The notes under the pieces are model-generated. The model made no database searches. It saw only the letters and a program-made list of their open reading frames with translations, and was not told the DNA's origin. From an uncultured Gemmatimonadales bacterium (GTDB lineage Bacteria > Gemmatimonadota > Gemmatimonadetes > Palauibacterales > Palauibacteraceae): a stretch of DNA of 64,000 bases. A program made the translations under genes and the position numbers. The stretch is from the NCBI GenBank assembly GCA_963783385.1, contig CAWANJ010000002.1, positions 20,908-84,907 of the forward strand, written 5' to 3'. Shown in pieces: positions 8,599-53,548 of this stretch (positions within the stretch are counted from its first letter, which is position 1; every line of letters begins with the position of its first letter).

Positions 8599-8605
8599 AA
8601 GACGG

Positions 8606-8621: not shown

Positions 8622-8678
8622 CGCAGCGAAGAGTGCATCTCCCTCATCCTTCCAGACGAGACCACAGCAGGTGACGCC

Positions 8679-9164: not shown

Positions 9165-9205
9165 GCTCCACCGGCGTCACGCTCGCGGACTGAGCCTCCG
9201 CCACG

Positions 9206-36329: not shown

Positions 36330-38693
36330 ATGCGCCAGCGCACGCTCCCGCTCGCTCTCCTGGCCCTGACCGCCCTCCCGCTGGCGGCGCGTCCCGCCCG
36401 CGGCCAGGCGCCCGTCCCGTACGCGCCCGACTCGGTCACGGCCGCCCGGTATGCGCATGCCGAGCGCTTCCTGCGCGCGGCCACGGCGCCCCTCGTGCTC
36501 CACGCGGACGTCAGGCCCACCTGGCTGCCGGACGGACGCTTGTGGTACCGGGTGCGGACGGCACGCGGGTTCGAGTTCGTCGTCGTCGACCCCGCGCGTC
36601 AGAAGAAGAGCTCCGCCTTCGACCAGGAGAAGGTGGCCGCGGCGCTGTCGGCGGCGGCGGACACGACGTACGACGCCTGGCACCTCCCCTTCCGGTCCTT
36701 CGAGTACGCGCGCGGCGGCAAGGCCATCACCCTCGAGGCGGGCGGGAAGGTCTACACGTGCGACGTCGGCGGAGCGAAGTGCACGGCCGGGAACGCGGCG
36801 TCGGAAGGACCGGGCCGCGACGTGGTCGTCTCCCCCGACGGGAAGCTCGGGGCCTTCCTCAAGGACTGGAACCTGTGGGTGCGCGACCTGGCCACCGGGA
36901 AGGAGACGCAGCTCACCACCGACGGGGTGAAGGATTTCGGCTACGCCACCAACAACGCCGGCTGGATCCGCTCCGACCGGCCCGTGATCCTGTGGTCCCC
37001 GGACTCGAAGCGGATCGCAACCTTCCAGCAGGACCAGCGCGGCGTCGGCGAGATGTACCTGGTCCACACGAAGATCGGCCACCCGACGCTGGACGCGTGG
37101 AAGTACCCGCTGCCGGGCGACAGCGTGATCACCACCATCCAGCGCGTCGTGGTCGACCTGGACGCCGCGGGCGGCCCGAAGGTCGTGCGGCTCGACATGC
37201 CCCCCGACCAGCACCGCTCCGGCGTGTGCGACCACGTGGCGTGCGGGCGTGGGAACCCGGCCGGCGACTTCGCCGACGTGCAGTGGAGCCCGGACGGCTC
37301 GCGGCTGTTCTTCGTGTCGACCTCCCGCGACCACCGGCACGAGACCCTGCGCGAGGCGGACCTTGAGACGGGAAAGGTGCGGGACATCCTGTCCGAGAGC
37401 GCGAAGGACTTCCTCGAGACCGGCTACAACCAGACCGACTGGCGGGTGCTCCCCTCGAAGAACCAGGTCATCTGGTACTCGGAGCGGGACGACTACGGGC
37501 ACCTGTACCTGTACGACCTGAGCACGGGGAAGCTGGAGCACCGGATCACCACGGGGCCGTGGAACGTGCTCCAGGTGCGGCGGGTGGACCCGGCCAGCGG
37601 CACGATCTGGTTCACGGGCGCGGGGCGGGAGCCCGGCGACCCCTACTTCCAGCGCTTCTACAGCGTGCGCACGGACGGGAGCCACCTCACCCTCCTCACC
37701 CCCGACAGCGCCGACCACCAGGTCACGATGTCGCCCGACGGGCGCTGGTTCGTGGACCGGGCCTCGACCCCGCAGACGCCGCCCACGACCGTGCTCCGCG
37801 ACGCGCGGGGCCGGAAGGCGATGGAGCTCGAGCAGGCCGACATCTCGCGGCTGCTGGCCGCCGGGTGGAAGCCGCCGGCGTCGATCACCGTGAAGGCGAG
37901 GGACGGGAAGACGGAGCTGTACGGGCTCCTGTTCACGCCGACGGACCTCGACTCGACGAAGGCCTACCCGATCGTGAACCACATTTACCCGGGCCCCCAG
38001 ACCGGGAGCGTGGGGAGCCGCAGCTTCGAGGCCTCGCGCGGCGACGCGCAGGCGCTGGCCGAGCTCGGCTTCGTGGTGGTCGAGATCGACGCCCTCGGGA
38101 CCCCGATGCGCTCCCACTCCTTCCAGGCGGCCTGGTACGGCGACATGGGCGACAACGGGCTCCCCGACCAGGTGGCGGGGATGAAGGAGCTGGCGGCGCG
38201 CCACCCGTGGATCGACCTGTCGCGGGCCGGGATCTACGGGCACTCGGGCGGGGGCTTCGCCACGGCGGACGCCATGTTCCGCTTCCCCGACTTCTTCCGC
38301 GTCGGGATCGCCGAGGCGGGGAACCACGACAACCGCGAGTACGAGGACGACTGGGGCGAGAAGTGGCAGGGCCTGCTGACCACCGGCCCGGACGGGAAGA
38401 CGAGCTACGACAACCAGGCCAACGAGCTCGTGGCCAGGAATCTGAAGGGGAAGCTCCTCCTGGCCTACGGTACCACGGACGACAACGTGCCGCCCTACAA
38501 CACGCTGCTCGTCGTGGACTCGCTGATCGCGGCCAACAAGGACTTCGACCTGATCGCGCTCCCCAATCGCCGCCACGGCTTCGGGGCCGAGCCCTACATG
38601 GTCCGCCGCCGGTGGGACTACTTCGTCCGGAACCTGCTCGGCGCCGAGCCCCCGCACGAGTTCCGGATCGGGGAGGGCGGCGACGGGGAGTAG
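36330..38693 (+). CDS. S9-family serine peptidase (DPP-IV-like prolyl oligopeptidase family) with N-terminal beta-propeller
   Basis: From ATG 36330 the signal peptide is MRQRTLPLALLALTALPLAARPARGQA. The C-terminal alpha/beta hydrolase has the nucleophile elbow GIYGHSGGGFAT, plus an Asp (TTDDNVPP) and a His (PNRRHGF). Confidence 0.85.
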   Translation: MRQRTLPLALLALTALPLAARPARGQAPVPYAPDSVTAARYAHAERFLRAATAPLVLHADVRPTWLPDGRLWYRVRTARGFEFVVVDPARQKKSSAFDQEKVAAALSAAADTTYDAWHLPFRSFEYARGGKAITLEAGGKVYTCDVGGAKCTAGNAASEGPGRDVVVSPDGKLGAFLKDWNLWVRDLATGKETQLTTDGVKDFGYATNNAGWIRSDRPVILWSPDSKRIATFQQDQRGVGEMYLVHTKIGHPTLDAWKYPLPGDSVITTIQRVVVDLDAAGGPKVVRLDMPPDQHRSGVCDHVACGRGNPAGDFADVQWSPDGSRLFFVSTSRDHRHETLREADLETGKVRDILSESAKDFLETGYNQTDWRVLPSKNQVIWYSERDDYGHLYLYDLSTGKLEHRITTGPWNVLQVRRVDPASGTIWFTGAGREPGDPYFQRFYSVRTDGSHLTLLTPDSADHQVTMSPDGRWFVDRASTPQTPPTTVLRDARGRKAMELEQADISRLLAAGWKPPASITVKARDGKTELYGLLFTPTDLDSTKAYPIVNHIYPGPQTGSVGSRSFEASRGDAQALAELGFVVVEIDALGTPMRSHSFQAAWYGDMGDNGLPDQVAGMKELAARHPWIDLSRAGIYGHSGGGFATADAMFRFPDFFRVGIAEAGNHDNREYEDDWGEKWQGLLTTGPDGKTSYDNQANELVARNLKGKLLLAYGTTDDNVPPYNTLLVVDSLIAANKDFDLIALPNRRHGFGAEPYMVRRRWDYFVRNLLGAEPPHEFRIGEGGDGE

Positions 38694-38725
38694 GACCCGG
38701 TGTCCTGGCCCGCTCGGGTTATGGC
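38447..38725 (+). repeat. copy 1 of a duplicated segment (3-prime end of the S9 peptidase gene plus about 30 bp downstream); the partner is 45495..45772
   Basis: About 90% nucleotide identity to 45495..45772 in the same orientation (GGGAAGCTCCTCCTGGCCTACGGTACCACGGACGACAACGTGCCGCCCTACAAC...). Confidence 0.7.
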
Positions 38726-38810
38726 CCTCTCAGCCGGGAGGGGAGCCGGTGCCTATCTGCTGGGCGAAAAGACGTAGGTGTGCTTCCCATCGCTCAAATG
38801 GAACGCTCCA

Positions 38811-39326
38811 TCACTGACTCGGCCCTCCAGCCATCAACTCGTCGCCGGCAGCGTCGACGAGAACGAGCGTGGTGCCATCCCAATCGTATTGTCCTGTCGA
38901 GCTGACGGCTCGCTGCTGGACCGAGCCTGAGGGATCCTGGAACTGGTTCGTGACGCTCATGGAGAACGCGCCCGTTTGACACTTCGACAGTTGATACGTG
39001 CTGCCATCGGGCAGCGTCACGAGGCCGGATGTGTCGACATGAGCGCCGTTCGGGACGTGATGAACGCATGCCTTCGGCATCCATCCGTCCGGCGTAGCCA
39101 CGCTGTCCTGTGACACGGCCTGGTCGAGCACGAGGGAACCCGCGACGAGTGTCGCGGTGCTGCCGGACGAATCCGTTGTCGTGCAGCATGGCAAACGACG
39201 AGCACCGTCGGCCGTCGTCAGCTCATACCGACCTGAAATGTCCTGGCCAGCGGCTGCTGGATTCGTCACCCCGCAGGCGCTCATTGCGAGTACTGACGTA
39301 ACGACAGCTACGACGGTTGTCTTCAT
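38811..39326 (-). CDS. hypothetical lipoprotein carrying a conserved Cys-motif domain shared with the upstream lipoprotein
   Basis: Lipobox MKTTVVAVVTSVLAMSAC. The domain ...ACVHHVPNGAHVDTSGLVTLPDGSTYQLSKC is shared with the 39476..40738 product. It lies in the lower-GC island. Confidence 0.5.
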   Translation of the reverse strand: MKTTVVAVVTSVLAMSACGVTNPAAAGQDISGRYELTTADGARRLPCCTTTDSSGSTATLVAGSLVLDQAVSQDSVATPDGWMPKACVHHVPNGAHVDTSGLVTLPDGSTYQLSKCQTGAFSMSVTNQFQDPSGSVQQRAVSSTGQYDWDGTTLVLVDAAGDELMAGGPSQ

Positions 39327-39475
39327 AGTATATCCTCCCAGTTGGGATCCTCGCCCGCTGAAGCCACGAGCACTCCGTTTCGTTTCCCAGTCGCGCGAGA
39401 TCTAGCGTGTCTCAACTTCCCGGCCGCCGTCCGTGTTCATGCGTAAGCAGTCCTCCGACGAGTCACACAGCTCGG

Positions 39476-40738
39476 CTACTGGCTTGAGCCGCTTCCGGAG
39501 GGCGCGAGCGGGCAACCCGAGCCGATGCAGACTTTGACGTGGTGGCTGGCGGTCGCCGTGTCGGGCGGAGAAACCGCAGTAAGATCCAGTGTGAAGCTCG
39601 TATCGTTAGCGTACACATAGCGTCTGTACGTGCTATCCGAGCCCACGCTCGAGCACGTCCCTCCGTCCGGGCAGAAGTCCCATGCATATGAGTAGCTCCC
39701 CGACCCGCCGCTAGGATTGGCCGACCACGTGTAGTTGCCTGCGGAGCTGATATAGCCGGTACCATTGATCCCAACGCTGAACGAGGGAACGTTGTGGTAG
39801 AGGTTCACCGTCGTGGCGGTATGGGTCGCGCTGAAATCACAGGATGGCGAAAGACCCGATGTTACATGGTTGTACCAGGTCGGAGAAAGACCGGTACCAT
39901 TGAGATCCTTGGTCGCAACGCCTGTGTAGAAGACCCCATTCTGCGGAAACTGACTGCATTGCGTCAGGCTGTAGACCTCGACGCCCCCCCCGCTTGCCCA
40001 GGTGTAGTTGTCGTTATCGTCCGCGGTCCAATCGGAGCGCGATCCTGTGATGACATCCACGAGAACGATGGTCCATGTGCAGGTCCCGTTCACGCAAGAG
40101 CTGGCCTGGACGCTACCATGGATGGAGTCCCCGGTAGTCGCCATGATGGTATCGCCGTGGAGACAGTCCGAGCCCGAGTTGCAGCGCCAAGAGGCCCCGC
40201 TCCAGAAGGAGCCGCCGTAGTCTCCGTTATACCCGTATTGGAGAACCGGTTGGATGATGTAGGAGCTGTTCTCAAGGCCTGGGAAGGTGTAGTAGACTTC
40301 CTGGCCGGAGTATGAGCCGCTGGGCTTTGCCGGCACCTTCCAGTCTGCGGTCAGCGTACCGAACGTATCGGACGAGAGCGTCGCCGAGTCCCACTCAAGC
40401 CAGCCGTTGAGGGACGGAGAGGCCACTGAATGCGAAGACCCCGCCCATTGCGGTAGGTTCGGGTGCGCTGGATGTGTACACGCGGGAAGTTGGAACGTCG
40501 AACCATCCGAACGTGTGACGCGCCCGTGAAGCCCGACGTGCGCGCCATTGGGAATCTGATGCACGCACGAACGGTCATACAATCCGGCGGGCGTGGCGAC
40601 ATAAGCGCCCTGACTTTCCATGGCTCCAAGGGACGCCCTAAGCCCCTTCGGTCCGGTGGGGTTCTTCTGATCCGAGCAGGCAACGGCCCCAAGCATTACG
40701 GCGATAACCAGTAGAGCTATGGGAGTTCGACCCTTCAT
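39476..40738 (-). CDS. hypothetical Cys/Gly/Ser/Trp-rich secreted lipoprotein (about 420 aa)
   Basis: From ATG 40738 the lipobox is MKGRTPIALLVIAVMLGAVAC. The N-terminal domain SCVHQIPNGAHVGLHGRVTRSDGSTFQLPAC is paralogous to the 38811 gene product. The large C-terminal region is rich in C, G, S, T, N, W and Y, suggesting a beta-sandwich carbohydrate-binding-like fold. About 60% GC. Confidence 0.55.
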   Translation of the reverse strand: MKGRTPIALLVIAVMLGAVACSDQKNPTGPKGLRASLGAMESQGAYVATPAGLYDRSCVHQIPNGAHVGLHGRVTRSDGSTFQLPACTHPAHPNLPQWAGSSHSVASPSLNGWLEWDSATLSSDTFGTLTADWKVPAKPSGSYSGQEVYYTFPGLENSSYIIQPVLQYGYNGDYGGSFWSGASWRCNSGSDCLHGDTIMATTGDSIHGSVQASSCVNGTCTWTIVLVDVITGSRSDWTADDNDNYTWASGGGVEVYSLTQCSQFPQNGVFYTGVATKDLNGTGLSPTWYNHVTSGLSPSCDFSATHTATTVNLYHNVPSFSVGINGTGYISSAGNYTWSANPSGGSGSYSYAWDFCPDGGTCSSVGSDSTYRRYVYANDTSFTLDLTAVSPPDTATASHHVKVCIGSGCPLAPSGSGSSQ

Positions 40739-40937
40739 GCCTGACCTCCCTCCGTGTTGCAGTCGGTCGCGTGCTGTGCGGCGATGTCGCTGCTCGTACC
40801 TCCTCAGCTTGCCATCGGTCATGCCGTATGTGTAACGTTTGAATTGAAGATTTGTGACAAACCCCGGGATCTGGTGGCGTTCAGATTCGGCGAAACTGCG
40901 TTGCGCTGGACCCCGGGGCAGCGGGAGGCTGGCTGGT

Positions 40938-41462
40938 GTGAACTACCGTGCCGCGTTTGCCCGGTACTACGAACCGCTCGTCCGCTACGCCTACACGCTG
41001 ATCGGAGACTCCGACCGGGCTGAGGATCTGGCCCAAGAAGCCTTTGCCCGACTGCTCGAGCAGGACCTTCCAGAGGCCAGCGTCCAGAGCTGGCTTTTCC
41101 GCGTAATCCGAAATCTCGTCCGAGACGGGACTCGCTCGCGGCGGCGGCGGCAGCGGCTACTCGCCGAGGCACGGCCGTACCACCGCCAAATCGACCCTCC
41201 TGATGTGGTGCTCGAGCGGAACGAGACCATTGAAAGGGTAAGCCGGGCGCTCTCGAAACTGCCGGAACGCGACCGCACGATGCTCCTCCTCCGACACCGG
41301 GGCTTCAGCTACGCCGAGATCGCCCAGCGCACAGGAGTAGCGCGAAGCTCGGTGGGGACGCTTCTGGCCCGAGCACTGCGCCGGTTCGAACGTGCCTATC
41401 AGAAGGGGAACGAGGATCGACCCGGCGACGCGGCCTCAAAAGCCGGAGGGAGCGTGGCATGA
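40938..41462 (+). CDS. ECF-type RNA polymerase sigma-70 family factor
   Basis: Region 2 (YEPLVRYAYTLIGDSDRAEDLAQEAFARLL...WLFRVIRNLVRDG) and region 4 (LPERDRTMLLLRHRGFSYAEIAQRTGVARSSVGTLLARALRRF). The GTG at 40938 follows a ggagg RBS. An alternative start is the ATG at 40854. Confidence 0.8.
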   Translation: MNYRAAFARYYEPLVRYAYTLIGDSDRAEDLAQEAFARLLEQDLPEASVQSWLFRVIRNLVRDGTRSRRRRQRLLAEARPYHRQIDPPDVVLERNETIERVSRALSKLPERDRTMLLLRHRGFSYAEIAQRTGVARSSVGTLLARALRRFERAYQKGNEDRPGDAASKAGGSVA

Positions 41463-42271
41463 CACTCAGGCCGACCGAGAGTGGCCACGTCTGTGACGGA
41501 ACGCTCATGGCTTTCCTCGATGAAGAGCTCAAGGCAGCGCAACGGGCCGCCGTGGGCCGCCATGTGCACGCGTGCCGTGCATGCGGCGAGCGGCTGGCAC
41601 GGCTGCGGACCGCGTCTAACCAGCTGTCTGGGGCGCTCCCAGCCCTGCACGACGATCCGGTCCTGCCAGCAGACGCCGTCTCCTTATCCCTGACTCCTCG
41701 CGCATTGACCGGGCGGCAGGGCCGGACGGGCCAAGCGCCGCGGAGTCGACGACGGCCCGTCAGCCCGCGTCGTCGGTGGCGGGCCGGTGTGTGGGCAGCA
41801 GCGCTGGTCGTTCTCTCCGCCGGAGCCCTGGCAGCTTTCCCCGGCTCCCCGGTGCACACCTGGCTGTCCCGGAAGCTAGGCGACCTGGCGCGAGGACAGT
41901 CGGCCGCCGCGCGTGGCTCTCCAACGCCGCCGCCGCCCGTGGTCTCCATCCTTCCCTACGAGGGATCGGTCACCGTACGACTCACCGGCACCACGTCCGC
42001 AACCCACGTCCATGTGCGGCTCGTGGCAGGCACCGAAGCCCGCGTCGAAGCGCCGGGCGCCACTTTCCGAGCGGGCCCTGGATTTGTAGACGTTTCGGAA
42101 GGGAGTGAAAGCGAACATATCACAATCGACCTCCCGCGAAGCGTCCGGTCCGCCCGCGTGGAAATCGACGGAAGGCTGGCGGTGATCAAGGATGGGGAGC
42201 TCCTCCGGCGTGTGGGAGCAGCCACGGGAACAAGCGACAGCTCCGTTGAGCTCGGGGGAGGAGTGCCATGA
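41459..42271 (+). CDS. zinc-finger (ZAS-type HxxxCxxC) transmembrane anti-sigma factor
   Basis: The start overlaps the sigma factor stop (ATGA). N-terminal HVHACRACGERL motif, a single TM helix AGVWAAALVVLSAGALAAF, and a periplasmic C-terminal domain. Confidence 0.65.
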   Translation: MTLRPTESGHVCDGTLMAFLDEELKAAQRAAVGRHVHACRACGERLARLRTASNQLSGALPALHDDPVLPADAVSLSLTPRALTGRQGRTGQAPRSRRRPVSPRRRWRAGVWAAALVVLSAGALAAFPGSPVHTWLSRKLGDLARGQSAAARGSPTPPPPVVSILPYEGSVTVRLTGTTSATHVHVRLVAGTEARVEAPGATFRAGPGFVDVSEGSESEHITIDLPRSVRSARVEIDGRLAVIKDGELLRRVGAATGTSDSSVELGGGVP

Positions 42272-42816
42272 CGCGGCTCCTCCTCGCGGTGCTGATCGTA
42301 CCGCTTCCGGCACGTCCAGCGCTTGGTGCGTGGTTGGAGGCGTCGACTGCGATGCGTTCCGTCTATGGGGGTCAGGGGAGCCTATCGACGCCACCGGCCG
42401 GTTCAGCCCCGTCAGCAGCCCACGCCGATACAACCGCAGGCAGTATCGCCGGGCGCCTATCCGCCAACGGAAGTGGCCCCCCGCTGGCCTCGGCGACCGT
42501 CGAGGCCCAGGGCCCGGGCGGCTCCCGCGTGATCCATGCGAACGTGGACGGCGTCTACCGAATCTTGGGACTCAAGCCCGGAGTGTGGTGGCTAAGCGCG
42601 CGCGCCCTCGACTACGCCTCGACGAAGGTCGCGGTTACACTTCCCGCGGGCGGCCACGTGAAGCTCAACCTCGCTCTTGACCTCCAGCCCGTAACTCTGC
42701 CGAGCCTGAAGGTCGCAGCAAAGCGCCGATGTGTCGGCGGCACGCTCCGCATTCGGGAATGGGAACCCGCTCGAAGCAGCGCAGGCGGCAGACCTCCTGA
42801 GCCTCAGCCCGGCTAG
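42268..42816 (+). CDS. CarboxypepD_reg-like domain protein, probably the N-terminal part of a TonB-dependent-receptor-like outer membrane protein interrupted by a frameshift
   Basis: Signal peptide MTRLLLAVLIVPLPARPALGA. CarboxypepD_reg domain GSIAGRLSANGSGPPLASATVEAQGPGGSRVIHANVDGVYRILGLKPGVWWLSARALDYASTKVAVTL. The start overlaps the anti-sigma stop. Its 3-prime end overlaps the next ORF in another frame. Confidence 0.5.
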   Translation: MTRLLLAVLIVPLPARPALGAWLEASTAMRSVYGGQGSLSTPPAGSAPSAAHADTTAGSIAGRLSANGSGPPLASATVEAQGPGGSRVIHANVDGVYRILGLKPGVWWLSARALDYASTKVAVTLPAGGHVKLNLALDLQPVTLPSLKVAAKRRCVGGTLRIREWEPARSSAGGRPPEPQPG

Positions 42817-44566
42817 CGCCTCCGCGACGGTTGACCTCTCCACAGCGGCACGCGGCGTCTTAGCTGGGGCGCCGCAGACGAAGGCGAGCACCCTCTTCAT
42901 GCCGGCGGCAGCGCGGAATGGCGGACGAGTCCTGCTGGACGGGGCGCCGGTTGTGGCTCCCGTGGAGCTTGCCGGACTCCTGTCACCTTTCCCGGCCGGG
43001 GTCTGGGGCACGGTACAGCTCGATCGGGCCGGCGCGCCCGTTCGTTTCGAGGCAGGCGGCATGGGCCTCCTCCGCCTCGACACCCGGGAGCCGAGAGGCC
43101 ACGCGATCCGAGCGTCCGGCTCCCTGGGGCAGCTGCAATCAACCCTGCAGGCTGCGGGTCCTCTAGGAGAGGGCGACTTCCTCGTCGGTGCCCGGGCGCT
43201 GAGCGCGGCCGGTTCCGCTTTTCCAACCGGCTCGAGAGGCTCATTGCCCTACGGGTACGCGGACGTGCTGGCCCGCCTGGACCTTCCGGCTGGCCCGGGC
43301 AGGGTGTCTGCGACGGGCTACTGGAACCGCGAGTCGCTCAGCGGCCCCGGATCGGCCAGCGCTTCGCTCCTGGCGTGGGGAAACACTGCAGGGTCCGTCC
43401 GCTATGTGGTACCTATCGGCCGGGGCGGCATGCGACTGAACGCGGCAGCCGGACGATTCCGGATCGCCGTGCCAGGGGGTAACGCAGAAGCCAAACTTCG
43501 GGAACACTCATTCGATGCACGAGCCGAGGCGGAGGTCTTTGGCCGCGCGGGTCCGGTGGACGTGACCGGCGGCCTCGCGTGGGACGGGGTGCGGCTGTCG
43601 CGCACGGCCCTCGACTCCGCCGATGGCGCGCCGCCCGTTCCTGGGGCCAACCTGGCGGGCGGCGTCGTATCACCCTATCTGGAGGTCAACGTCGACCTGA
43701 CCCCGGCCCTCTCTCTGCGAACCGGTCTGCGGGCCGAGGCCGCCAGCTACGGCGCCCTCGGCTGGGACCCAAGGGCCACTCTGGAGTGGCGTGCGGGACC
43801 CCGGCTATCCGTGTACGCAGCCGCCGGGCGTTCGCACCAGCTCGTGGAGCGTGAAAGCGTCACGGGCTGTGATCCGGCCTCAGGGGTTTGCGGAGCGAGC
43901 AGCCTGTTCCTCGACGGAGCAAGCCATGTGGCTGCCGGCTTCAAAGCCCGGCCGTCGGTCCCGTTGACCCTCGGCCTCGATATGTACTTGGCAAACTACG
44001 GGGAGGCCGTCACCGCTCTGCGGGCCAGGTCAATCGGAGCTGAGATCCGCGGAACGTGGCGAGGGGACGGCTGGAGCACGTGGCTCGACTACTCGCTGGC
44101 CAGCACCCGGTCGTCTGAGCCACTCGGGATCGGCGGCGGCGCAGCACAGTTGGAGCAGCGACTCCTCGCTGGCTTCTCCGCCGAGATTCCCCCGGCCATC
44201 CACGTGGCGCTCCGGCTCCGGGTGAGCGCCGGCTTACCATACACTCCCCTTCCGATAGTGGGCTCGACATCTTCCGCAGGTGCGGGGTCCGGATATCCCT
44301 GGCCCGTAATAAGTCCCCCGGGCTCCGGCGGACAGCCGTCCGCACTCGCACTGCCGGGATCATGGGCGCGGCTAGACGGAACGGTCTCTCGAAGCTGGCA
44401 CGCCCGCGTCTTCGGCGCCGACGTGATGCTCACTCCCTACCTTGAGGTCCTGAACGCCGCCGGAACAAGAGACGCGCCGTTCTACTGGAGCCGCTCCGGC
44501 GCTGCGCAGCGATCAATTGGTGCCGTGCCGCTCCTGGCGGCTGTCGGCGTGCGCTGGGGACTCTAG
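42731..44566 (+). CDS. outer-membrane beta-barrel (TonB-dependent receptor-like) C-terminal part
   Basis: 611 aa rich in G, S, A and aromatics with alternating beta-strand patterns and a C-terminal ...AAVGVRWGL (terminal aromatic then L). The plug-like N-terminus (NPLEAAQAADLLSLSPASA) follows the CarboxypepD_reg ORF in a different frame. Together they span 766 codons, the size of one receptor gene. Confidence 0.5.
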   Translation: MSAARSAFGNGNPLEAAQAADLLSLSPASASATVDLSTAARGVLAGAPQTKASTLFMPAAARNGGRVLLDGAPVVAPVELAGLLSPFPAGVWGTVQLDRAGAPVRFEAGGMGLLRLDTREPRGHAIRASGSLGQLQSTLQAAGPLGEGDFLVGARALSAAGSAFPTGSRGSLPYGYADVLARLDLPAGPGRVSATGYWNRESLSGPGSASASLLAWGNTAGSVRYVVPIGRGGMRLNAAAGRFRIAVPGGNAEAKLREHSFDARAEAEVFGRAGPVDVTGGLAWDGVRLSRTALDSADGAPPVPGANLAGGVVSPYLEVNVDLTPALSLRTGLRAEAASYGALGWDPRATLEWRAGPRLSVYAAAGRSHQLVERESVTGCDPASGVCGASSLFLDGASHVAAGFKARPSVPLTLGLDMYLANYGEAVTALRARSIGAEIRGTWRGDGWSTWLDYSLASTRSSEPLGIGGGAAQLEQRLLAGFSAEIPPAIHVALRLRVSAGLPYTPLPIVGSTSSAGAGSGYPWPVISPPGSGGQPSALALPGSWARLDGTVSRSWHARVFGADVMLTPYLEVLNAAGTRDAPFYWSRSGAAQRSIGAVPLLAAVGVRWGL

Positions 44567-44632
44567 GACGGAACGGCCCGTCGTCGAATCTGTCGGCTCG
44601 AACCTCAGGAAGGCGGCTCTCCCAATGAGAGA

Positions 44633-44672
44633 GCTCCGAGCTTCCGTTCGGAGCTTCCCGGCTGTGAGCCGG
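44633..44672 (+). terminator. tandem GC hairpins downstream of the receptor-like gene
   Basis: The 7-bp stem gctccga-gcttccgt-tcggagc is immediately followed by ccggc-tgtga-gccgg, 67 nt past the stop at 44566. Confidence 0.35.
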
Positions 44673-44959
44673 CACGAACGACGGTCGGGTCCGGTGTACA
44701 GAACAGCCTTCGGTTGCGCCGGTGCTTGCTCTCACCGGACTCAATCGCAACTACATCTAATCCGAAGCGACAGATACGAGATTCTCGGTACTCGCGAAGG
44801 TGCCAATCGTCGATCCTCCTGAATTGTCACTACGGAGTGCAGTTTCCGGGCAGTATTGGCACGGGGGAACCTCATGCACCGCCTGCAACGCCGCAGTCCC
44901 AACTGAGAATGGAAGCCAACCTCACGACAGTACTGGGCCCGAGCGGCGCGGACTGGCAC

Positions 44960-45494
44960 CACGAGGGCCACGCTCATCAACGCCATGGCCAGAATCTGAA
45001 TGGCACGCTTCCCGATACCCTACTCACCAAGGTGTCGAGCTCACACTCTCGATCAAGTCCTGTGAAATCGGAAACGTGTCAACTCGGAGGCGGTCCGAGC
45101 CGTACGGCCCCGACGCATTGCGAACCGACACCGCCGGGCTCCGCCCCTCAGCCCCCCGGCACCACCAGCCCGATCCCCTTCGAGGCCATGGCCGCGTTGA
45201 AGGCCGGCACGGTCGTGCCCACGAGCCGCTCGAAGTCGGCCCGCGCCTTCTCCAGCCGCCCTTCGAGGAGGTGGAAGACCTCGATGTCCTGCGTGGTGGG
45301 TGCGAGGTCGGGGCTCCCGGCCACGTCGCCCGCGCCGTCGCCCACCTCGCCGGCCAGCCACACGAGCTTGAGGTAGAGCTTCATCTCGGCCGGATACGTC
45401 TTGACGTCCCCGGCGGCCAGGTAGCGCTGGAACAGGAGGTCCTCGACGGCGAGCGCGCTGTCGTCCACGGCCCGGGCGGCCTCCATGACCGACA
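44960..45494 (-). repeat. displaced duplicate (about 88 to 90% identity) of 47975..48527: the 3-prime end of the BNR/sortilin-like gene plus its downstream intergenic region and the start of the next gene
   Basis: Colinear nucleotide similarity, for example ...TCATCAACGCCATGGCCAGAATCTGAATGGCACGCTTC... against ...TCATCAACGCCATAGCCAGAATCCAAATGGCTCGCTTC... Similarity continues through CGACGCATTGCGA...GGCCTCCATGACCGAC and ends abruptly at 45494. Confidence 0.7.
45148..45486 (-). pseudogene. truncated copy of the C-terminal ~110 codons of the BNR/sortilin-like protein (compare 48176..48514)
   Basis: The translation MEAARAVDDSALAVEDLLFQRYLAAGDVKTYPAEMKLYLKLVWLAGEVGDGAGDVAGSPDLAPTTQDIEVFHLLEGRLEKARADFERLVGTTVPAFNAAMASKGIGLVVPGG is near-identical to the C-terminus of ORF 48176..48919. 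No N-terminal part is present. Confidence 0.7.
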
Positions 45495-45740
45495 GGGAAG
45501 CTGCTCCTGGCCTACGGGACCACGGACGACAACGTGCCGCCCTACAACACGCTGCTCGTCGTGGACTCGCTCATCGCGGCGGGCAAGGACTTCGACCTCA
45601 TCGCGCTGCCCAACCGGCGGCACGGCTTCGGGGCCGAGCCCTACATGGTCCGCCGGCGGTGGGACTACTTCGTCCGAAACCTCCTGGGCGCCGAGCCCCC
45701 GCACGAGTTCCGGATCGGGGAGGAACGCGGGGAGGAGTAG
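45495..45740 (+). pseudogene. truncated copy of the last ~80 codons of the S9 peptidase gene (compare 38447..38693)
   Basis: The translation ...LLLAYGTTDDNVPPYNTLLVVDSLIAAGKDFDLIALPNRRHGFGAEPYMVRRRWDYFVRNLLGAEPPHEFRIGEERGEE matches the end of the S9 peptidase at 36330..38693. It is joined directly to the BNR-gene fragment at 45494/45495. Confidence 0.7.
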
Positions 45741-45776
45741 GATAGGATGTTCTGGTCTGCACCCGCTACGGAGCGT

Positions 45777-46607
45777 CTAGCCTGGAGGAGCGCCCGTATA
45801 GGATTTCAGCCAGAGGACGATGGCACCGCAGCGCATCGACACCTCGGTGGTCAGCTCGGGCGGAAGCTGGTCGGGCGGGTAGATCTCGACGGCGGTCACG
45901 TCGTACTTGGGGTAATAATCGGCGGGGCGCCCGGTCACGGTCTGGGCGCGGTTCCTGAGCCAGTCGGCTCGCCGACCATTCACAAAGTACTGGGGCTCGC
46001 AGTACTTGCCCAGCGGCCGACGCATCTTCGTGCCGGGGCCGTAGACGTTGCGGGTGGCCAGCAGCGTGCCCAGCTCACCGTGATAGCGCTCAATGTCCCG
46101 CTCCGTGACGAGCTGCCCTCGGCCCGCCGCCACGCGTCGCTCGAACCTTTCCAGTGCGCCGGGCGTTCCGCGCACAGTGGCCCGGAGCTCCTCTTGAGGT
46201 ATCGGCTTGACGGGAACTTCAATGTCGGCCGTGAGGGTCTCTCCGGGGCGCAGGGTGGTCCCACGCTGCACCGGGGCCGACCCGAGGAAGTCGACCTCGA
46301 TCGTGATCCGTCCCGGCTTCACGTCGGCGAACCGGTAGCGCCCATCCTTGCCGGTGAACGCAGTCCGCTCTCGATCGACAAGCTCCACCCGTGCCCCCTC
46401 GACCGGCGAGTGGAAGTCCGCTCGCGTGATCGTGCCCTGGACGACGGCTCCCGTGTCGATCGCCGCCTTCCAGCCTCCGATCGCGGCTCTCCGCGGCGCA
46501 CGGACGGCGCGCAGCGCGGGAGCGCCCGTGAGGATTATGCTGGCTACGGCGGCGACCGAAGCTATTCCGAGCGACGGCGACCAACTGGGGTGCCTCGGGA
46601 GCCTCAA
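45777..46607 (-). CDS. secreted CarboxypepD_reg-like domain protein
   Basis: Signal peptide MRLPRHPSWSPSLGIASVAAVASIILTGAPALRA. Domain VQGTITRADFHSPVEGARVELVDRERTAFTGKDGRYRFADVKPGRITIEVDFLG. A ~150-aa C-terminal region follows. Confidence 0.6.
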   Translation of the reverse strand: MRLPRHPSWSPSLGIASVAAVASIILTGAPALRAVRAPRRAAIGGWKAAIDTGAVVQGTITRADFHSPVEGARVELVDRERTAFTGKDGRYRFADVKPGRITIEVDFLGSAPVQRGTTLRPGETLTADIEVPVKPIPQEELRATVRGTPGALERFERRVAAGRGQLVTERDIERYHGELGTLLATRNVYGPGTKMRRPLGKYCEPQYFVNGRRADWLRNRAQTVTGRPADYYPKYDVTAVEIYPPDQLPPELTTEVSMRCGAIVLWLKSYTGAPPG

Positions 46608-47811
46608 GACCCCGCACCTTCAGCCTGCCCTGTGCCTCGGCCCGGGCCCGCGTTCAGCTCCGGCGCCAGGACCTGCAATCGCGTGTCTCCGGCCGAGGTC
46701 TGCACCACGCTGAAGGCGAGGCTGGTGCCGCAAACGCTCCCCAGCACCGAGTCGACGCGGCGCCGGGCCAGCACCCTGGGTGGTCCGGCGCCAGCGATGT
46801 CCAGCACCTCGACGATCGTGTCGAACTGGCCTCGGAAGAAGCGTGGGGAAGTCGGCTTTGGGTCCGCAGTCGCCCAGTGAGCGTCCGGAATCAGCGCATA
46901 CACCCAAAGTCGGCCCTGGTTGTCCAGCGCGAGCGCGTTCATCATGGCGGGAGGCGGACCCAAAGTATAGAGATCGCTGAGCCGCTTCGGCGAGAGGTCC
47001 TGTGTCGTGGGAAACCAGTCAGCGCGTCGAATTAGGACCCGCGTGACTGCACGGTCGTCGGACCAATGATAGAGTGCGTAGCGCCATAGGCCCGCGGCCC
47101 AAAAACCGCCCTGCTGATCGGGTGCGAGAATCCATTGGTCCAGCGGTCGTAGCCGGGACGATGGCTCCCCAAACGACGCAGGGTGTCCCCGGACGGATCG
47201 AGGAGTTCAAAGAGGCGCGTGTCGCCCTCGCTCGCTCCCAGCGGACGGCTGTGGACGAGGATGGTATCGGGCCCGATCAAGGCCAGGTCACTCACGGGTC
47301 GACGAGTGCGGAACAGATGGGCCACCCGGCCCGCCAATGTCAGGGTGACCATCCGTGCGTTCGAGTTGTCGGCCACATATAGCGTGTCCCCGCGGCCGAC
47401 CAGCACCCTTAGGTGCGAGCCAAATTCACGCGGTCCTGCCCCCGGGCCTCCAATGTCTCGAGAGAAGCGCCCGTGACGACTGTAGACGGCAAGCTGACCG
47501 CCTCCTACTATGGCGCTAACGACGAAGCGGCCCGATCCAAGCCGTCCAACGGAGCAGGCGCGGAACGGTGCGTCCGCCATGATAGAGGCCGGATCCTCGG
47601 AGCTCCCAAGTTGCACGACCGAATCCAACGTGATCGACCCGGCCAGCCGCTGTGCTGTTTCGACCAAGGCAGGCCTGACGTCCGTGTGGAAACGGCTGTT
47701 GCCAGGCTGTGTGTCAGGTGGTGTCGAACGACCACATGCGGTGGATAGTAGACTGAGGCCAGTCCCAGCAAGACAGAGAGCCCTCGGTCCCCTACAAATG
47801 AATCCGAGCAT
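46604..47811 (-). CDS. six-bladed beta-propeller-type lipoprotein (paralogue of 56434..57621), reading frame interrupted around 46963 to 47032; possible pseudogene
   Basis: N-terminal part ORF 47032..47811 (lipobox MLGFICRGPRALCLAGTGLSLLSTAC). C-terminal part ORF 46604..46963 in another frame. Both parts align with the intact 56434 gene (GGPGAGPREF against GDGPGEF, and LWVYALIPDA against DVWARRLLPDT). The combined length of 402 codons matches the paralogue. Confidence 0.55.
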
Positions 47812-47974
47812 TCCGCGAAGGATGCGGGCGCCTAGTGGGTGGGGTCTAGCAGATGTCTGGGCCCCGGAACTTCCTCCGGCCCTCCCACTCGGCGGCATGT
47901 AGATGTGGATGGGCAACCGCACTCTCCCGGGACGGCCCACCACTCGCGTCGTGAATCCCACTGAAATTCTAGGG

Positions 47975-48527
47975 GCGAACCAACGCCCTGAGATACCTTC
48001 ATCAACGCCATAGCCAGAATCCAAATGGCTCGCTTCATGGCAGTCTTCTTACCGAAGGGTTGACCTCAACCCATCTTCATCAATTTCGACAAATTTGACA
48101 ATGTGTCAACACCGACCCGGTCCAAACCCACTCCACTCCGACGCATTGCGAGTCGATATCGTCGGGCGCCGCCCCTCAGGCCCCCGGCACCACCAGCCCG
48201 ATGCCCTTCGACTCCATGGCCGCGTTGAAAGCCGGAACGGTCGTGCCCACGAGGCGCTCGAAATCGGCCCGCGCCTTCTCGAGCCGCCCCTCGAGGAAGT
48301 GGAACACCTCCACGTCCTGCGTGGTGGGGGCGAGGTCGGGACTCCCGGCCACGTCGCCGGCGCCGTCGCCGACCTCGCCGGCCAGCCACACGAGCTTGAG
48401 GTAGAGCTTCATCTCGGCCGGGTAGGTCTTGACGTCCCCGGCGGCCAGGTAGCGCTGGAACAGGAGGTCCTCGACGGCGAGCGCGCTGTCGTCCACGGCC
48501 CGGGCGGCCTCCATGACCGACGCCGAG
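47975..48527 (-). repeat. copy 2 (in situ) of the duplicated segment whose displaced partner is 44960..45494
   Basis: See 44960..45494. Confidence 0.7.
48095..48109. promoter_or_regulatory. perfect palindrome TTGACA-atg-TGTCAA in the intergenic region upstream (minus-strand sense) of the beta-propeller lipoprotein locus
   Basis: 6-3-6 inverted repeat whose half-site equals the sigma-70 -35 consensus. It lies about 57 nt upstream of the conserved MKRAIWILAMALMKV start at 48038. A partial copy (cgtgtcaac) is kept in the displaced repeat at about 45066. Confidence 0.35.
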
Positions 48528-51394
48528 TCGGCCCGGCCCTGCAGACTCACCGGCAGGTCCTCGATCTGCTTCCGGACGACCTCGGTGCGGTTGATCATGC
48601 TCACCACCGCGTCAATGTCGTCGTACACGGCCTTCCACAGCTTCGTCTGCGCCCGGACGTCCGCGAGCGTGCCGGTCGTGTTCGGGTCCTTGAGGACCGT
48701 GAGCGGGGCGGCGAGCGTGTCGCCCCCGGCCGTCACCGTTACCGTGTACGTTCCCGGGTCCACCAGCGGACCCAGCTTCGGGAGGCTCGATCCCCCAGTG
48801 GTAGATCTCGCGCGTGTTCTTTCCGCGGAAGCGCTTCTCCTCCCAGACGTGGCGGGTGCGCGGCGGGCGTGGTGCGGAGCTTCACCTCGCGCGTGGGCGG
48901 CTAGCGGAGGTCCCACCACACGCGGTCGATCCCGGCCTCCCCGGGGCCGGTCAGGCGCCGCACGACCCGGCCCGAGTCATCGGCGATCGTGACCCGCACC
49001 GGCCCCGTCGCCTTCGACGCCGAGGAAGTAGTCGATGTCGGCCCCGTAGGGCGGGTTCCGGCCCCGCGAGCGGTCGTTGGGCACCCCGCGCGGCGTGCTC
49101 ACGGTGCGGAAGCGGTAGGCGTCGCGCGGCCGGAACAGGTGCGCGCTGCGAGGCGAGCACGGCCGGCGTGAGCTGCTCCAGGGGCGAGATGTCGTCCAGG
49201 ATGTAGAGGCCGCGCCCCTTGGTGGCGACCACCAGGTCGTGGAAGTGGCTCTGCACCGTGAGCCAGGTGACCGGCGCGGGCGGGAGCCCGCTCATGAGCC
49301 TGGTCCAGTGCGCGCCGTCGTCGGGCGACACGTACAGGGCGTCCTCGGTGCCGGCGTACAGGAGCCCGGCCCGCACCGGGTCCTCGCGCACCACGTGCAC
49401 GTAGCTCAGGGGCGAGGCCGGGATGCCGGCGCTCAGCTTCTTCCAGCTCTTCCCGTAGTCGTCGGTCTCGTAGATGTAGGGCCGGCGGTCGTCCACCTGG
49501 TGGAAGTCGACGGAGATGTACGCCTTGCCCCTTGCTGGTGCAGGGAGGGGTCGATGTTGCTGATCGTGCCCCACGGCGGCAGGTCCGGGATGTCGGGGGT
49601 CACGTTCGTCCAGTGCGCCCCGCCGTCCCGGGTCACGTGCACGAGCCCGTCGTTGCTCCCGGCCCAGATGACGCCCGCCTCGAGCGGCGACTCGGCGATC
49701 GCGAACAGGGTGCCGCCGTACTCGACCCCCAGGTTGTCGGGGGTGAGGCCGCCCGAGCTCCCCATGCGGCTCGTGTCGTCCAGGGTGAGGTCGGGGCTGA
49801 TCACCTTCCAGCTCCGCCCTCCGTTCGTGGTCTCGTGCACGACCTGGCTGCCCACGTACACGTGGCTCGGGTCCTCGGGCGAGAGAGCGATGGGCTGCGT
49901 CCAGTTCCACCGGTACTTGAGCACCCTGGCCGGCGAGTCCAGCGACTTGTCGGGCCACGGGCTCACGGACTGCCTGTGGCCGGTCTTCAGGTCGAAGCGC
50001 TCCACCTCGCCCGAGTAGCAGCCGCCCCACACCCAGCGGCCGCTCACCGTGTCGGGCCACGTGAAGCCCGACTCGCAGCCGGCCGTCGTGGTCCAGATGG
50101 CCGAGGAGATCCCGCCCCCGGTGAGGCTGTTGCTGGGCCCCCGCACGGAGCCGTCGTCCTGCATGTTGCTGTACACGAAGTAGGGGACCCGATTGTCCAC
50201 CGCCACGTGGTACATCTGCCCGATGGGGAGCACGATGGGGTTCCAGGAGCGGCCCCGGTCCACGCTGATCATGACGCCGCCGTCGTAGCCGATCATCATG
50301 CGGCGGGGGTCCTGCGGGTCGGCCCACATGTCGTGGTCGTCCCCGCCCCACGGAACCCGCTGGATCGTCTCGCCGCCGTCGTGGGTGACGTACATGTAGT
50401 TCGAGGGGAACCACACGGTGCCCGCGTCGTCGGGGGCGATCAGCATGCGCGTGTAGTAGTGGGGGCGCTCGTCGATGAGCCGGTTCCAGCTCACGATCCG
50501 CCAGCGGTGGCCGCCGTCGTCGGAGCGCCACAGGGAGCCCGCCCCGCCCGTCTCGATGAGCGCGTACACGCGGCTCGGGTCGCTGCGGGCCACGGCCACG
50601 TCGATCTTGCCGACGGGGGAGGGGGGCAGGCCGTCCTCCGCGCCCAGCCGGCTCCAGTGGTCGCCGCCGTCCCGGGTCACGAACACGCCGCTCCCGGGGC
50701 CGCCCGAGTCCTGCCCCCAGGTGTGGATCACGAACTGCCAGGTGCCGGCGAACAGGACGTCCGGGTCGTGGGGGTCGAGGGCGAGCCCCGAGCAGCCGGT
50801 GTGCTCGTCGACGAACAGGACCTTCTTCCAGGTGCGGCCGCCGTCCTCGGTGCGGTACACGCCGCGCTCGGGCTGCTCGCCGTAGCCCCGCCCCATGGCG
50901 CAGGCGTACACGCGGTCCGGGTCGCGCGGGTCGATCACGATGCGCCCGATGCGGCCGGTGGCCTCGAGCCCCATGTGGTGCCAGGTGCGGCCGCCGTCGG
51001 TCGACTTGTAGATCCCGTCGCCCAGGGAGACGTTGCTCCGGATGAAGGGCTCGCCCGTCCCCACCCACACGGTGCTCGGCCGGCCCGGGTCGACCGCGAT
51101 CGAGCCGATGGACTGGACGTCGGTCGAGTCGAAGATGGGCCGCCAGTGGGCGCCGGCATCGGTGGACTTCCACACGCCGCCCGAGGCGGCGCCCACGTAG
51201 TAGACGTTCGGGTTCCCGGGCTCGCCCACCACCGCGCTCACCCGGTTGCCGCCCGGCCCGATGAAGCGGTAGCGGAGCTGCTGCAGGTGGGAGGGATCGA
51301 GCTGCTGGGCGGCGGCCGGGGAGGGGCGGAGCAGCGCCGGCATGGCGAGAACGGCGGCCGCCGCGAGGAGAGCCGGCAGGCGCGCGCCCCTCAT
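48176..51394 (-). CDS. sortilin/Vps10-like BNR (Asp-box) repeat protein, about 1070 codons; the reading frame is interrupted at least twice, so it is a possible pseudogene or carries indel errors
   Basis: ATG 51394 with a GGGAGGG RBS. Signal peptide MRGARLPALLAAAAVLAMPALLRPSPAAAQQ. There are many SxDxGxTW motifs (STDAGAHWR, STDGGRTWH, TEDGGRTWK, TRDGGDHWS, SDDGGHRWR, THDGGETIQ, SVDRGRSWN, TTNGGRSWK, TRDGGAHWT). The body runs in frame H (ORF 49433..51835), switches to ORF 48951..51506 near 49550, and then to ORF 48176..48919. Confidence 0.6.
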
Positions 51395-53548
51395 CACTTC
51401 CCTCCCAGTCCGACCTGCCGCATGGCGAACGCCTGCTCCATGGCCTGGTCCTCGATCGAGACGTCGAACGGCCGCCCCCGGCCCGCGGCGTGTCCCTCGC
51501 GGGCACGGAGCCGGTAGATCACCGGGAGGCCCGAGGTGGTGGCGTGCTGGAGCTCCGCCGCGAAGCCGCGGCCCTGCCGCGGCGGGACCCGGGTGTCGTG
51601 GCCGCCCGAGAACACGAACACGGCCGGGTAGCGGGTGCCGTCGGTCACGTGCTCGTAGGGCGAGAACGCCTCCAGCCAGCGGAACTGGACCGGGTCGGCC
51701 GCGTCCCCGTACTCGTGGATGGCGGGCATGTTGTTGCGGTGCGTGAAGGTCACGAAGCGGTCCATGTCGAGGTCGGGGAAGCCGCACAGCACGGCCCGGA
51801 ACAGCTCCGGGCCCCTGCGTGACCGCCGCGCCCATGAGGAGCCCGCCGTTGCTCTCGCCGTGGATGGCCAGGGTGGAGGGCTTCCGTGTAGCCCCGGTCC
51901 TCCAGCCAGCGGGCCGCGGCCAGGAAGTCGTCGAACACGTGCTGCTTGTTCTTCAGCATGCCCCCCTCGTGCCACGCCTCCCCGAACTCGCTCCCACCCC
52001 GCAGGTTGGCCAGGGCCCAGATCCCGCCCCGCTCGGCCCACAGGGCCGCCTCGGCGCTGAAGTGCGGGGTGATGGCCACGTCGAAGCCGCCGTAGCCGGT
52101 GAGCATGGTGGGCACGGGCTTCCCGGCCGGGAGGTCCCGCCGGTGCACCAGGAACATCGGCACCCGCGTGCCGTCCTTCGACGCGGTACCACACCTGCTC
52201 GACCTCGATCCCCGCCGAGTCGAAGGGCACGCGCGAGGGCTCGTACACCGTGCGCTCGCCGGTCTTCGGGTCGAGGACGTAGGTGACGCCGGGGCTCGTG
52301 AACGAGCGCACGGACAGGAACGCCTTCCCGCCCGGGGCCGGCCGGATGCTGGCGCTGGACAGCGGCGGCAGCGGCACTTCGCCCTCCGGCGTCCCATCCA
52401 GTCCGAAGATCCGGATCCGGGCCGACACGTCGTGCAGGTAGGTGGCGTAGATCTTCTTCCCGATGAAGGCGTAGCCGGTGAGCACGTCGCCGGTCTGGGG
52501 CAGGATCTCCCTCCAGCCGTCCGGGCCGGGCCGGGAGGGATCGGCCACCACCAGCCGGTAGCGGGGCGCCAGCCAGTCGGTGAGGATCCACAGCTTGCCG
52601 TCGTGCGGCGCGGATCCGCGCGTGCATCGGGAGCCCGCCGGTCACCGACACGCGGTGGCTACCGTCGGCGTCCTCGATCCACGCCTCGTCCCGCAGCCAC
52701 CCCACCGCCTCGGTGACCAGGCGGCGGCCGTCCTCCAGGGTGCGGACGCCCACGAAGCGGTCCGGCCCGGCGTGCGGGTCGTAGACCACGGAGTCCCCGG
52801 CCGGGTCGGTGCCGAGGCGGTGCCGGTACAGCCGCGAGCCCGTCTCCCGGGAGCGCAGCACGTAGGTGATGGCGCGGCCGTCCGGCGCGAAGGAGGCCTC
52901 GTCGTACAGGGCGGGCGGGAAGCGGTCGGGGAGGTCCGTCCCCCGGCCCACGTCGCGCACCCGGAGGGCGGTCTCGTCCGCGCCCCCGTCACGGAGGTCG
53001 TAGAGCACCAGGCGCCCGTCGTGGGACACGTCCCGGAGCTCGACCCGCGTCCACCCGGTCGAGTCGATCGCCAGCGGGTCCACGACCTCCTCGTACTTCC
53101 CGTCCGGGTCGACCGGGACGATCGAGTCCGCCGGCGGGGCGGGGCGGCGGAAGATGCCGGCCACGGGATCGCCCGGCCGGCGAAGGCTGAAGTACTCCCA
53201 CTTCCCGGCGCGGCGCGGACTCCCGATCTGGGGCACGTCCTCCAGCCGCCGGAGCTCGGCCCGCAGCGAGTCGCGCAGCGGCGTCTCGCCGACCACCCGC
53301 TCGGCGTAGGCGCTCTCGGCCGCGATCCACGTCTTCACCTCCGGGGCGCTCCCGTCGGCCAGCCACAGGTAGGGGTCCGAGAATCGCTGGCCGTGCACCG
53401 TGAAGGTGGCCGTGTCGCGGCGGGTGGCGGGCGGCTGCGGGGCCGATCCCGCCGAGCCGGCGGGCCGGCAGCCCGCCGCGATGCAGGCGAGGGCCGTCGC
53501 GAGGAGGAGGGAGGGGAGGCCGGCGCGACGGCGGGATGCTCTCGGCAT
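51394..53548 (-). CDS. S9A prolyl oligopeptidase family lipoprotein, about 718 codons; the frame is interrupted at least three times, so it is a possible pseudogene or carries indel errors
   Basis: Start 53548, lipobox MPRASRRRAGLPSLLLATALACIAAGC. N-terminal propeller (HGQRFSDPYLWLADGSAPEVKTWIAAESAYAE...) in ORF 51953..53548. The catalytic domain is split between ORF 51750..52397 (LTGYGGFDVAITPHFSAEAALWAERGGIWALANLRGGSEFGEAWHEGG) and ORF 51394..52551 (PELFRAVLCGFPDLDMDRF...VFVFSGGHDTRVPP). The stop TGA overlaps the downstream BNR ATG (TGATG). Confidence 0.6.

Follow-up and report, generated by a model that had tools for sequence, protein, structure and literature searches.

Two different gene cassettes, here called X and Y, lie in tandem between a convergent S9 peptidase gene and a BNR/sortilin-Vps10-type gene (BNR) in a 64,000-nucleotide stretch of DNA from an uncultured Gemmatimonadales bacterium (the window). 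They are separated by a displaced 3′ end of BNR that abuts a displaced 3′ end of S9 (Table 1). The junction between these displaced ends is real. [quoted passage not shown]

Organization of the locus and the novel junction

Gapped self-comparison of the whole 64-kb window returned exactly two pairs of repeats, both direct. Repeats A and A′ are 86.5% identical across 304 nt (E = 2e-98), and repeats B′ and B are 86.5% identical across 524 nt (E = 1.6e-175). Identity amounts to 91.5% in the coding part of A/A′ and to ~94% in that of B/B′, with ~62–70% in the non-coding part of B/B′. An earlier note on this DNA had described a copy of the S9 3′ end from 45495 onward and, to the left of the junction, a copy of the BNR 3′ end with its downstream sequence, and the self-comparison found its coordinates and percentages for both to be essentially right. 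The two fragments also abut where the note had placed them, with B′ ending at 45493, an A at 45494, and A′ beginning at 45495. The layout is that of a tandem duplication, as had been claimed, and runs from intact S9 through a first interior, the BNR 3′ end joined to the S9 3′ end, and a second interior to intact BNR. Both units are direct, with one new junction of unit end to unit start (A..B′ to A′..B) and with the outer S9 and BNR genes intact. The orphan coding fragment of A′ has the orientation of S9 and follows it at a distance of 6.8 kb.

Two smaller elements that the earlier note had reported in the repeats are genuine. The stretch downstream of BNR in repeat B holds the first 13 codons of a 60-aa open reading frame (ORF; MKRAIWILAMALM, ATG at 48038, minus strand), and the GTGTCAAC element occurs in both copies, at 45076 and 48103, and nowhere else in the window.

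Table 1. Features of the S9/BNR locus, in window coordinates.
Feature	Position	Strand	Description and basis
S9 (DPP-IV type) peptidase gene	36330..38693	+	787 aa, intact; Pfam DPPIV_N and Peptidase_S9
Repeat A	38448..38750	+	final 246 nt of S9 gene and ~57 nt 3′ of the stop
Cassette X	38751..44973		left interior
X: two low-GC secreted proteins	38811..39326, 39476..40822	-	GC 58–63% at 38.75–41.25 kb
X: ECF sigma factor	40938..41462	+	Pfam
X: anti-sigma factor	41459..42271	+	Pfam
X: TonB-dependent-receptor-like outer-membrane protein	42268..44566	+	Pfam; split by 1-nt consensus insertion at 42754
X right end: degenerate remnant of 60-aa ORF	~44810–45040	-	homology
Repeat B′	44974..45493	-	displaced BNR 3′ fragment; coding 45148..45493, 115 codons and stop; 174 nt downstream
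GTTGACAC (-35-like) element	45076 in B′, 48103 in B	-	sequence
Novel junction	45493..45495		antisense BNR interior joined to S9 interior; blunt, 0–1 nt microhomology
Repeat A′	45495..45797	+	displaced S9 3′ fragment; coding 45495..45740, 81 codons and stop; ~57 nt downstream
Cassette Y	45798..47998	-	right interior
Y: 276-aa CarboxypepD_reg protein	45777..46607	-	Pfam; intact
Y: 452-aa lipoprotein gene	46604..47961	-	inactivated by real 1-nt deletion near 47180
805-bp deletion scar	47998..47999		relative to MAG M, MAG G, and L005; 1-nt microhomology; left edge of repeat B
Repeat B	47999..48521	-	final 346 nt of intact BNR gene and 177 nt downstream
BNR/sortilin-Vps10-type gene	48176..51394	-	1093 aa in relatives

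Cassette X has been seen only in the window lineage and is absent from the relatives with an empty site and from those that carry Y only. Its genes are intact in the short-read contig L041. Beyond this lineage, the next homologues of the X receptor are 68% and 43% identical (among 5.8 billion proteins). The anti-sigma protein of the window had no exact match on look-up and differs from the 270-aa version called in contig L009. At the right end of X, positions 44825–44973 are homologous to a stretch downstream of BNR in two metagenome relatives, MAG M (Candidatus Palauibacterales) and MAG G (Gemmatimonadota SMAG_U9199). Scans for tRNAs, Rfam families, and promoters or terminators were all negative, and the X and Y ORFs contain no integrase or transposase Pfam domains.

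Single-nucleotide indels at 38816, 42754, and 44908 of the window are absent from L041, which represents the same strain (99.9% identical). Since these indels split genes in the consensus and are missing from the short-read contig, the window is a noisy long-read assembly, and pseudogenization was rejected as the reading of the split genes for these three consensus indels. BNR falls into three frames in the window through 1–2 nt indels relative to the intact 1093-aa gene of M. The frameshift of the 452-aa gene in Y is the exception, being common to the window, the Illumina contig L006, and contig L124. Cassette Y is 98.4–99.8% identical to its counterparts in M, G, L005, L006, and L127. Relative to M, G, and L005, the 805-bp deletion took a DsbA-like gene and the 3′ part of the 60-aa Cys-rich secreted ORF. 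With this deletion and the frameshift, Y is now decaying.

The junction recurs in further assembled contigs, identical over 51 nt in L001/L009 and L008 and over ~64 nt in L124. It is found in European Nucleotide Archive (ENA) assembly ERZ25039549 on contig_84573 (9.5 kb, window 38676–48186, 99.5% identity) and on contig_97047 (317 kb, the terminal 14 kb of which matches window 58702–44748 at 98.4%), and in ERZ25039500 on contig_13949 (9.6 kb, 99.3% identity). Against the window and among themselves, these three contigs show differences of 0.5–1.6%, the consensus sequences being about 1% apart from one another. In all, the junction stands in four contigs from three assemblies, including ones of 317 kb and 413 kb; the contigs all derive from long-read assembly and carry Flye-style names, and assembly ERZ25039549 supplies two of them. 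Two assemblies besides that of the window contribute three long-read contigs in which the junction is the same to the base, which makes a chimera arising in a single assembly unlikely. At 45494, the A may be untemplated or may be the final base of a Lys codon. The join sits 8 nt before the first A/A′ difference and 95 nt after the last B/B′ difference, and it creates no fusion ORF, the S9-frame ORF beginning at 45534 and the BNR-frame ORF at 45486.

Divergence of the copies and states of the site in relatives

The differences between the copies are distributed over first, second, and third codon positions as 2:4:15 in A/A′ and as 2:2:16 in B/B′. Third positions hold 31 of the 41 differences (76%; P = 3.7e-8 against a uniform distribution, and P = 0.011 against a share of 0.57, the expectation with one neutral copy), and third positions of the repeats differ by 14–18%. 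When MAG M is used as a third sequence, 13 of the 18 fragment-specific changes are at third positions (P = 8.5e-4). In addition, the fragments contain no frameshift or internal stop in 196 codons, their stop codons are co-located with those of the intact genes, and protein identity is 94–96%. As a control, the genuinely dead 452-aa gene differs from its homologue in M by 3:4:4 over the codon positions. The third-position bias, the preserved frames and stops, and the protein identity thus argue that the fragments diverged inside working genes, and by this codon-position signature the fragments were evidently under selection until recently.

The repeats are also far older than the arrangement that contains them, since Y is ~99% identical to the Y of M and G while the repeats are at 86%. 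The flanking genes of M and G, including S9 and BNR, are just 82–94% identical to those of the window. Gapped self-comparison found no residual homology between the interiors X and Y. The interiors are different cassettes that occur separately in the population, not one sequence that diverged, and comparison of the two units shows that they are of separate origin.

Different states of the site are found among relatives. In the nearest relatives of the window, L125 (ERZ25039549 contig_114088) and L126 (JGI 3300032061), the site is empty, with only 11 nt between the stop codons of S9 and BNR. An unduplicated convergent S9/BNR arrangement, which the earlier note had predicted for relatives, is thereby present in close ones, and the convergent pair also occurs in the distant relatives L121, L123, and L069. 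Neither the 57-nt nor the 177-nt downstream stretch shared by the repeats is present at the empty site. In M, G, L005, and L127, the site contains Y only, with S9 facing the 276-aa gene, the 452-aa gene, the DsbA-like gene, the 60-aa Cys-rich ORF, and BNR. A 5.6-kb block that begins in the 3′ half of BNR and takes in the final 800 bp of S9 is 99.9% identical between M and G, with flanks at 77–90%, and homologous patches of 1–6 kb from diverged relatives are frequent at the S9/BNR locus. The S9/BNR gap is a cassette hot spot that holds nothing, Y, or other content in this Palauibacterales population.

In the flanking genes, homologous crossovers are directly apparent. The window is 99.5% identical to L125 and L126 from 27.2 kb up to ~37000 within S9, the start of which was fixed by alignment to the S9 of M, and then diverges by ~6% until the S9 end. 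The 3′ 1.7 kb of S9 (~37000–38693) is accordingly a divergent allele relative to these nearest relatives, though the switch at ~37000 may belong to another event than the junction, or to their lineage rather than that of the window. The S9 tail of L125 and L126 is 96.3% identical to A′ and 92.7% identical to A; repeats B and B′ are equally far from L126. The A and A′ tails share 94% protein identity, both lying in the conserved Peptidase_S9 domain, and a peptide search of a protein database with the 80-aa A′ tail returned only short fragments of ≤87% identity. Repeat B differs by 3.3% between the window and L124, and the differences between these two are mostly in the 3′ half of BNR. Aligned in this way, the genomes point clearly to recombination breakpoints inside S9 (~37000) and inside BNR. 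Repeat B has been changed by later imports or gene conversion, so that the copies owe part of their divergence to the time since the junction formed.

Proposed history and rival explanations

Cassettes at this site would normally be swapped by homologous crossovers within the conserved S9 and BNR genes. In the event proposed here, the incoming segment would have derived from a diverged relative and comprised the 3′ 1.7 kb of S9, X, the degenerate 60-aa ORF, and the 3′ 346 nt of BNR. It would have recombined homologously inside S9 near 37000, while its far end (45493) entered no crossover in BNR and was instead fused, by a blunt join at 45494/45495, to the S9 gene already present. Rather than being replaced, the S9 tail (A′) and the cassette Y of the recipient would thus have been shoved downstream, S9 remaining intact by use of the imported tail A and BNR remaining intact as well. 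The donor BNR piece (B′) would have been trapped, and both cassettes would have ended up in tandem. The displaced gene ends would be recent, inert remnants, and the decay of Y would have begun later. The enzymology may have been akin to homology-facilitated illegitimate recombination (HFIR) or may have involved break-copying as far as the donor fragment reached, with end joining afterwards.

That this was a single event, and that X was incoming and Y resident, is likewise deduced. The polarity is drawn from three observations, namely that A′ is nearer to the S9 tail of the relatives, that the S9 switch lies on the X side, and that X is intact while Y carries two lesions. The evidence for it is modest, with A′ being just 96.3% identical to the allele of the nearest relatives and B and B′ being equidistant from L126. 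We infer the donor and recipient, since no X-only genome (S9, X, and an intact BNR with a B′-type tail) and no Y-only genome with the exact A′ tail was found; a JGI metagenome scan with S9 and a genome scan with BNR returned M and G as the only close relatives.

A history in two steps is rather unlikely, though it has several observations in its favor. A tandem duplication of S9-3′..Y..BNR-3′ in a Y-bearing ancestor would have made the junction. An ordinary homologous exchange, its two crossovers lying in S9 near 37000 and in B′, would then have put X of a diverged relative in place of Y in the first unit, further imports later altering B. Such a history is possible because some of the copy divergence postdates the junction: B differs between two junction-bearing strains, which means that the repeats change by import after junction formation, and imported patches of the size noted above are demonstrably common here. 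The topology is also exactly that of a tandem duplication. However, two rare events are required, an unstable duplication with 3.8-kb identical direct repeats must survive until the second of them, and the contigs found include none with two Y units. The junction-proximal part of B′ is identical to B, as this history would have it, and about 2.4 differences would be expected across those 95 nt. Yet this identity was rejected as a clue to crossover or duplication and is uninformative, since all W-clade alleles are identical there, including that of the empty-site strain. With the polarity reversed, S9-X-BNR would have been resident, and a segment of a Y-bearing relative (A′, Y, and the BNR 3′ end) would have recombined homologously in BNR and been joined bluntly and illegitimately at its S9 end. 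This is improbable. It would agree with the restriction of X to this lineage, with the 96–99% identity of Y and the non-coding part of B to M and G, and with the import patches in the 3′ half of BNR, but the S9 tail of the nearest relatives is closer to A′ than to A, and the S9 allele switch is on the X side. Moreover, recipient DNA would have been kept on both sides of the crossover within the duplicated stretch, for which a circular intermediate or a sister chromosome is needed.

It is very unlikely that an assembler placed the alternative paths of co-occurring X and Y strains in tandem. Such a false duplication would resemble the locus in setting alternative alleles side by side with overlapping ends, and strain-allele differences would likewise carry the signature of purifying selection. 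The samples hold several related strains, with the empty-site contig_114088 and two junction contigs all in ERZ25039549, and the long-read assemblies are noisy, with many 1-nt indels. Against this, the three assemblies give the same junction, extra A included, in each comparison of their four contigs (51–64 nt), and the join is embedded in contigs of several hundred kb. No common sequence at the join could mislead an assembler, the position of the join (8 nt and 95 nt from differences) is unlike the edges of assembly bubbles, and those samples yielded no W-type contig with X alone or Y alone. The reading of the earlier note, an ancient tandem duplication in one genome whose copies and interiors mutated in place while one gained an island, can hardly be maintained. 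Its topology and the existence of unduplicated relatives stand; its age and its mode of divergence do not, being contradicted by the third-position bias and the frames and stops kept in supposedly dead fragments, by a Y that is ~99% identical to that of other species beside repeats at 86%, by interiors devoid of homology, and by an empty site that lacks the 57-nt and 177-nt stretches.

Relation to known systems and biological meaning

The event belongs to a known kind, and no new kind of system is revealed by it. In its working it would resemble HFIR. In HFIR, linear DNA that derives from transformation or conjugation has a homologous anchor on one side and is joined illegitimately on the other. 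Junctions from HFIR experiments usually show 3–8 nt of microhomology, with recipient DNA being deleted. Genes without a homologue in the recipient are added in this way (PMC3240628), and X likewise represents DNA gained, being absent from the relatives with an empty or Y-only site, with no close homologues found elsewhere. The locus differs from HFIR in that the join in the window is blunt, recipient DNA was retained and displaced rather than deleted, and the far end of the incoming segment was homologous to the nearby BNR, yet that homology went unused. The join is non-homologous, but with its 0–1 nt of microhomology it looks more like end joining. The HFIR literature comprises de Vries and Wackernagel (2002), Prudhomme et al. 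(2002), and Meier and Wackernagel (2003).

A likeness also exists to Rhs, CDI, and T6SS loci, in which an intact gene gains a new 3′ end and a linked cassette, and the old 3′ end is orphaned downstream in the same orientation. Jackson et al. (2009) and Kirchberger et al. (2017) treat such displacement of C termini and the resulting orphan arrays. HFIR has been proposed to explain the orphan genes and displaced 3′ ends of T6SS and Rhs loci (PMC5361080), and the mechanism is the same as that proposed here, with an upstream homologous anchor and a downstream illegitimate join. However, S9 is not a polymorphic toxin, and the logic of an immunity gene does not apply to it. The old and new S9 tails are also near-equal at the protein level, so the swap of the tail itself gains nothing. 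Unique to this locus is the trapping of a piece of the gene on the other flank (BNR).

In classical tandem duplications, the DNA between the repeats is the cell's own and the units are identical. Tandem duplications and merodiploids also include ones that are triggered by transformation (Johnston et al., 2013, PMC3784515). The locus shares with merodiploids the direct order of two units, the single novel join, and the intact flanking genes, but its units are alleles and cassettes from diverged lineages and its join is non-homologous. It differs from site-specific islands and other integrative elements in having no integrase, transposase, tRNA, att-like, or other repeats. To our knowledge, nothing is known of recombination mechanisms in the phylum Gemmatimonadota.

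A tandem-duplication layout with 86%-identical repeats seems ancient, and the locus is better read as a recent stacking of alleles from diverged lineages. Where a population recombines heavily, the divergence of repeats within a genome is no guide to the age of a rearrangement. The locus also gives a clean natural illustration of cassettes being turned over, and now and then accumulated, through recombination at conserved flanking genes in uncultured Gemmatimonadota. It is tentatively proposed that alternative cassettes, which usually replace one another, can accumulate through a one-ended homologous event and a blunt end join, the metagenomes showing empty, Y-only, and X-plus-Y sites within one uncultured soil lineage. 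If this is true, heterologous merodiploidy would be a general route of accessory-gene gain, beyond toxin/immunity loci.

Split genes and base-level differences

Several genes in the window are interrupted by 1-base indels, namely those for the 190-aa protein, the TonB-like receptor, BNR, and the prolyl oligopeptidase, with BNR and the oligopeptidase each being divided into three frames. The indels at 38816, 42754, and 44908 have no counterpart in the same-strain short-read contig L041; those of BNR and the oligopeptidase are recognized solely from 1-2 nt gaps relative to the intact genes of the Palauibacterales MAG M. The gene-splitting indels look like long-read consensus errors rather than marks of pseudogenes.

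The window also differs from same-strain, Illumina-based contigs by seven substitutions, five of which are C/T differences within the motif CAT[C/T]G and occur in both directions. These changes could be due to methylation-linked basecalling error, or to a deamination hot spot at methylated CpG.

Coordinates of the features discussed
Feature	Sequence	Position
Left part of cassette X	window	38750-41250
Single indels	window	38816, 42754, 44908
Indel regions	window	48749-49650; 51394-53548
C/T sites at CAT[C/T]G	window	40816, 45837, 46092, 47336, 47452
452-aa lipoprotein gene	window	46604-47961 (frameshift near 47180)
Peptide/DsbA region	L005	204-1079
Peptide/DsbA region	L003	5409-6430
Peptide/DsbA region	window	47999-48038; about 44810-45040
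Block common to M and G	L003 (vs L011)	3800-9450
Mosaic BNR tail	L124	10243-10765
Compared BNR tail (B)	window	47999-48521
Compared displaced copy (B')	window	44974-45493
S9/BNR-like pair	L121	10001-15675

Genes of the cassettes and of the region after BNR

The left part of cassette X has a GC content of 58-63%, compared with roughly 70% for the genome, and the pair of proteins encoded there, both secreted, have no Pfam match (lengths of 171/190 aa and 448/420 aa). In cassette Y, the 452-aa lipoprotein gene carries a genuine 1-nt deletion common to the window, the Illumina contig L006, and the long-read contig L124; its substitutions relative to M are distributed 3:4:4 by codon position. The protein encoded by the adjacent 276-aa CarboxypepD_reg gene shows no differences between the window and seven contigs of other assemblies.

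After BNR, relatives have a gene for a 60-aa secreted Cys-rich peptide (MKRAIWILAMGLMSV...SCHDVECHLSLDCGVVCGACDNPVPILPGNCTP), with GTTGACAC, which includes TTGACA, located ~65 nt upstream of the ORF. A DsbA/thioredoxin-like gene comes next in L005, a Y-only relative, and the matching stretch of L003 has no gene call. Of the two units in the window, one has lost the peptide/DsbA pair by deletion, and the other has it in a degenerate form.

Exchange at the locus and age of the S9/BNR pair

The two species-level MAGs M and G (the latter being Gemmatimonadota SMAG_U9199) have in common a 5.6-kb block of 99.9% identity that takes in Y together with the 3' half of BNR and the 3' end of S9, with flanks that are 77-90% identical, a sequence pattern that points to very recent recombination between species. 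L124 represents the second strain that carries the junction, and its intact BNR tail has a mosaic make-up, with several states matching the displaced fragment B' at sites where B, the intact tail of the window, departs. This mosaic could be the product of intragenomic gene conversion between both repeats, or of further import.

The distant relatives L121, L123, and L069 also carry S9 and a BNR-like gene as convergent neighbours, separated by 0.2-0.5 kb, at identities of about 61% for S9 and 38-46% for BNR. Thus, the S9/BNR pair is older than the cassettes.
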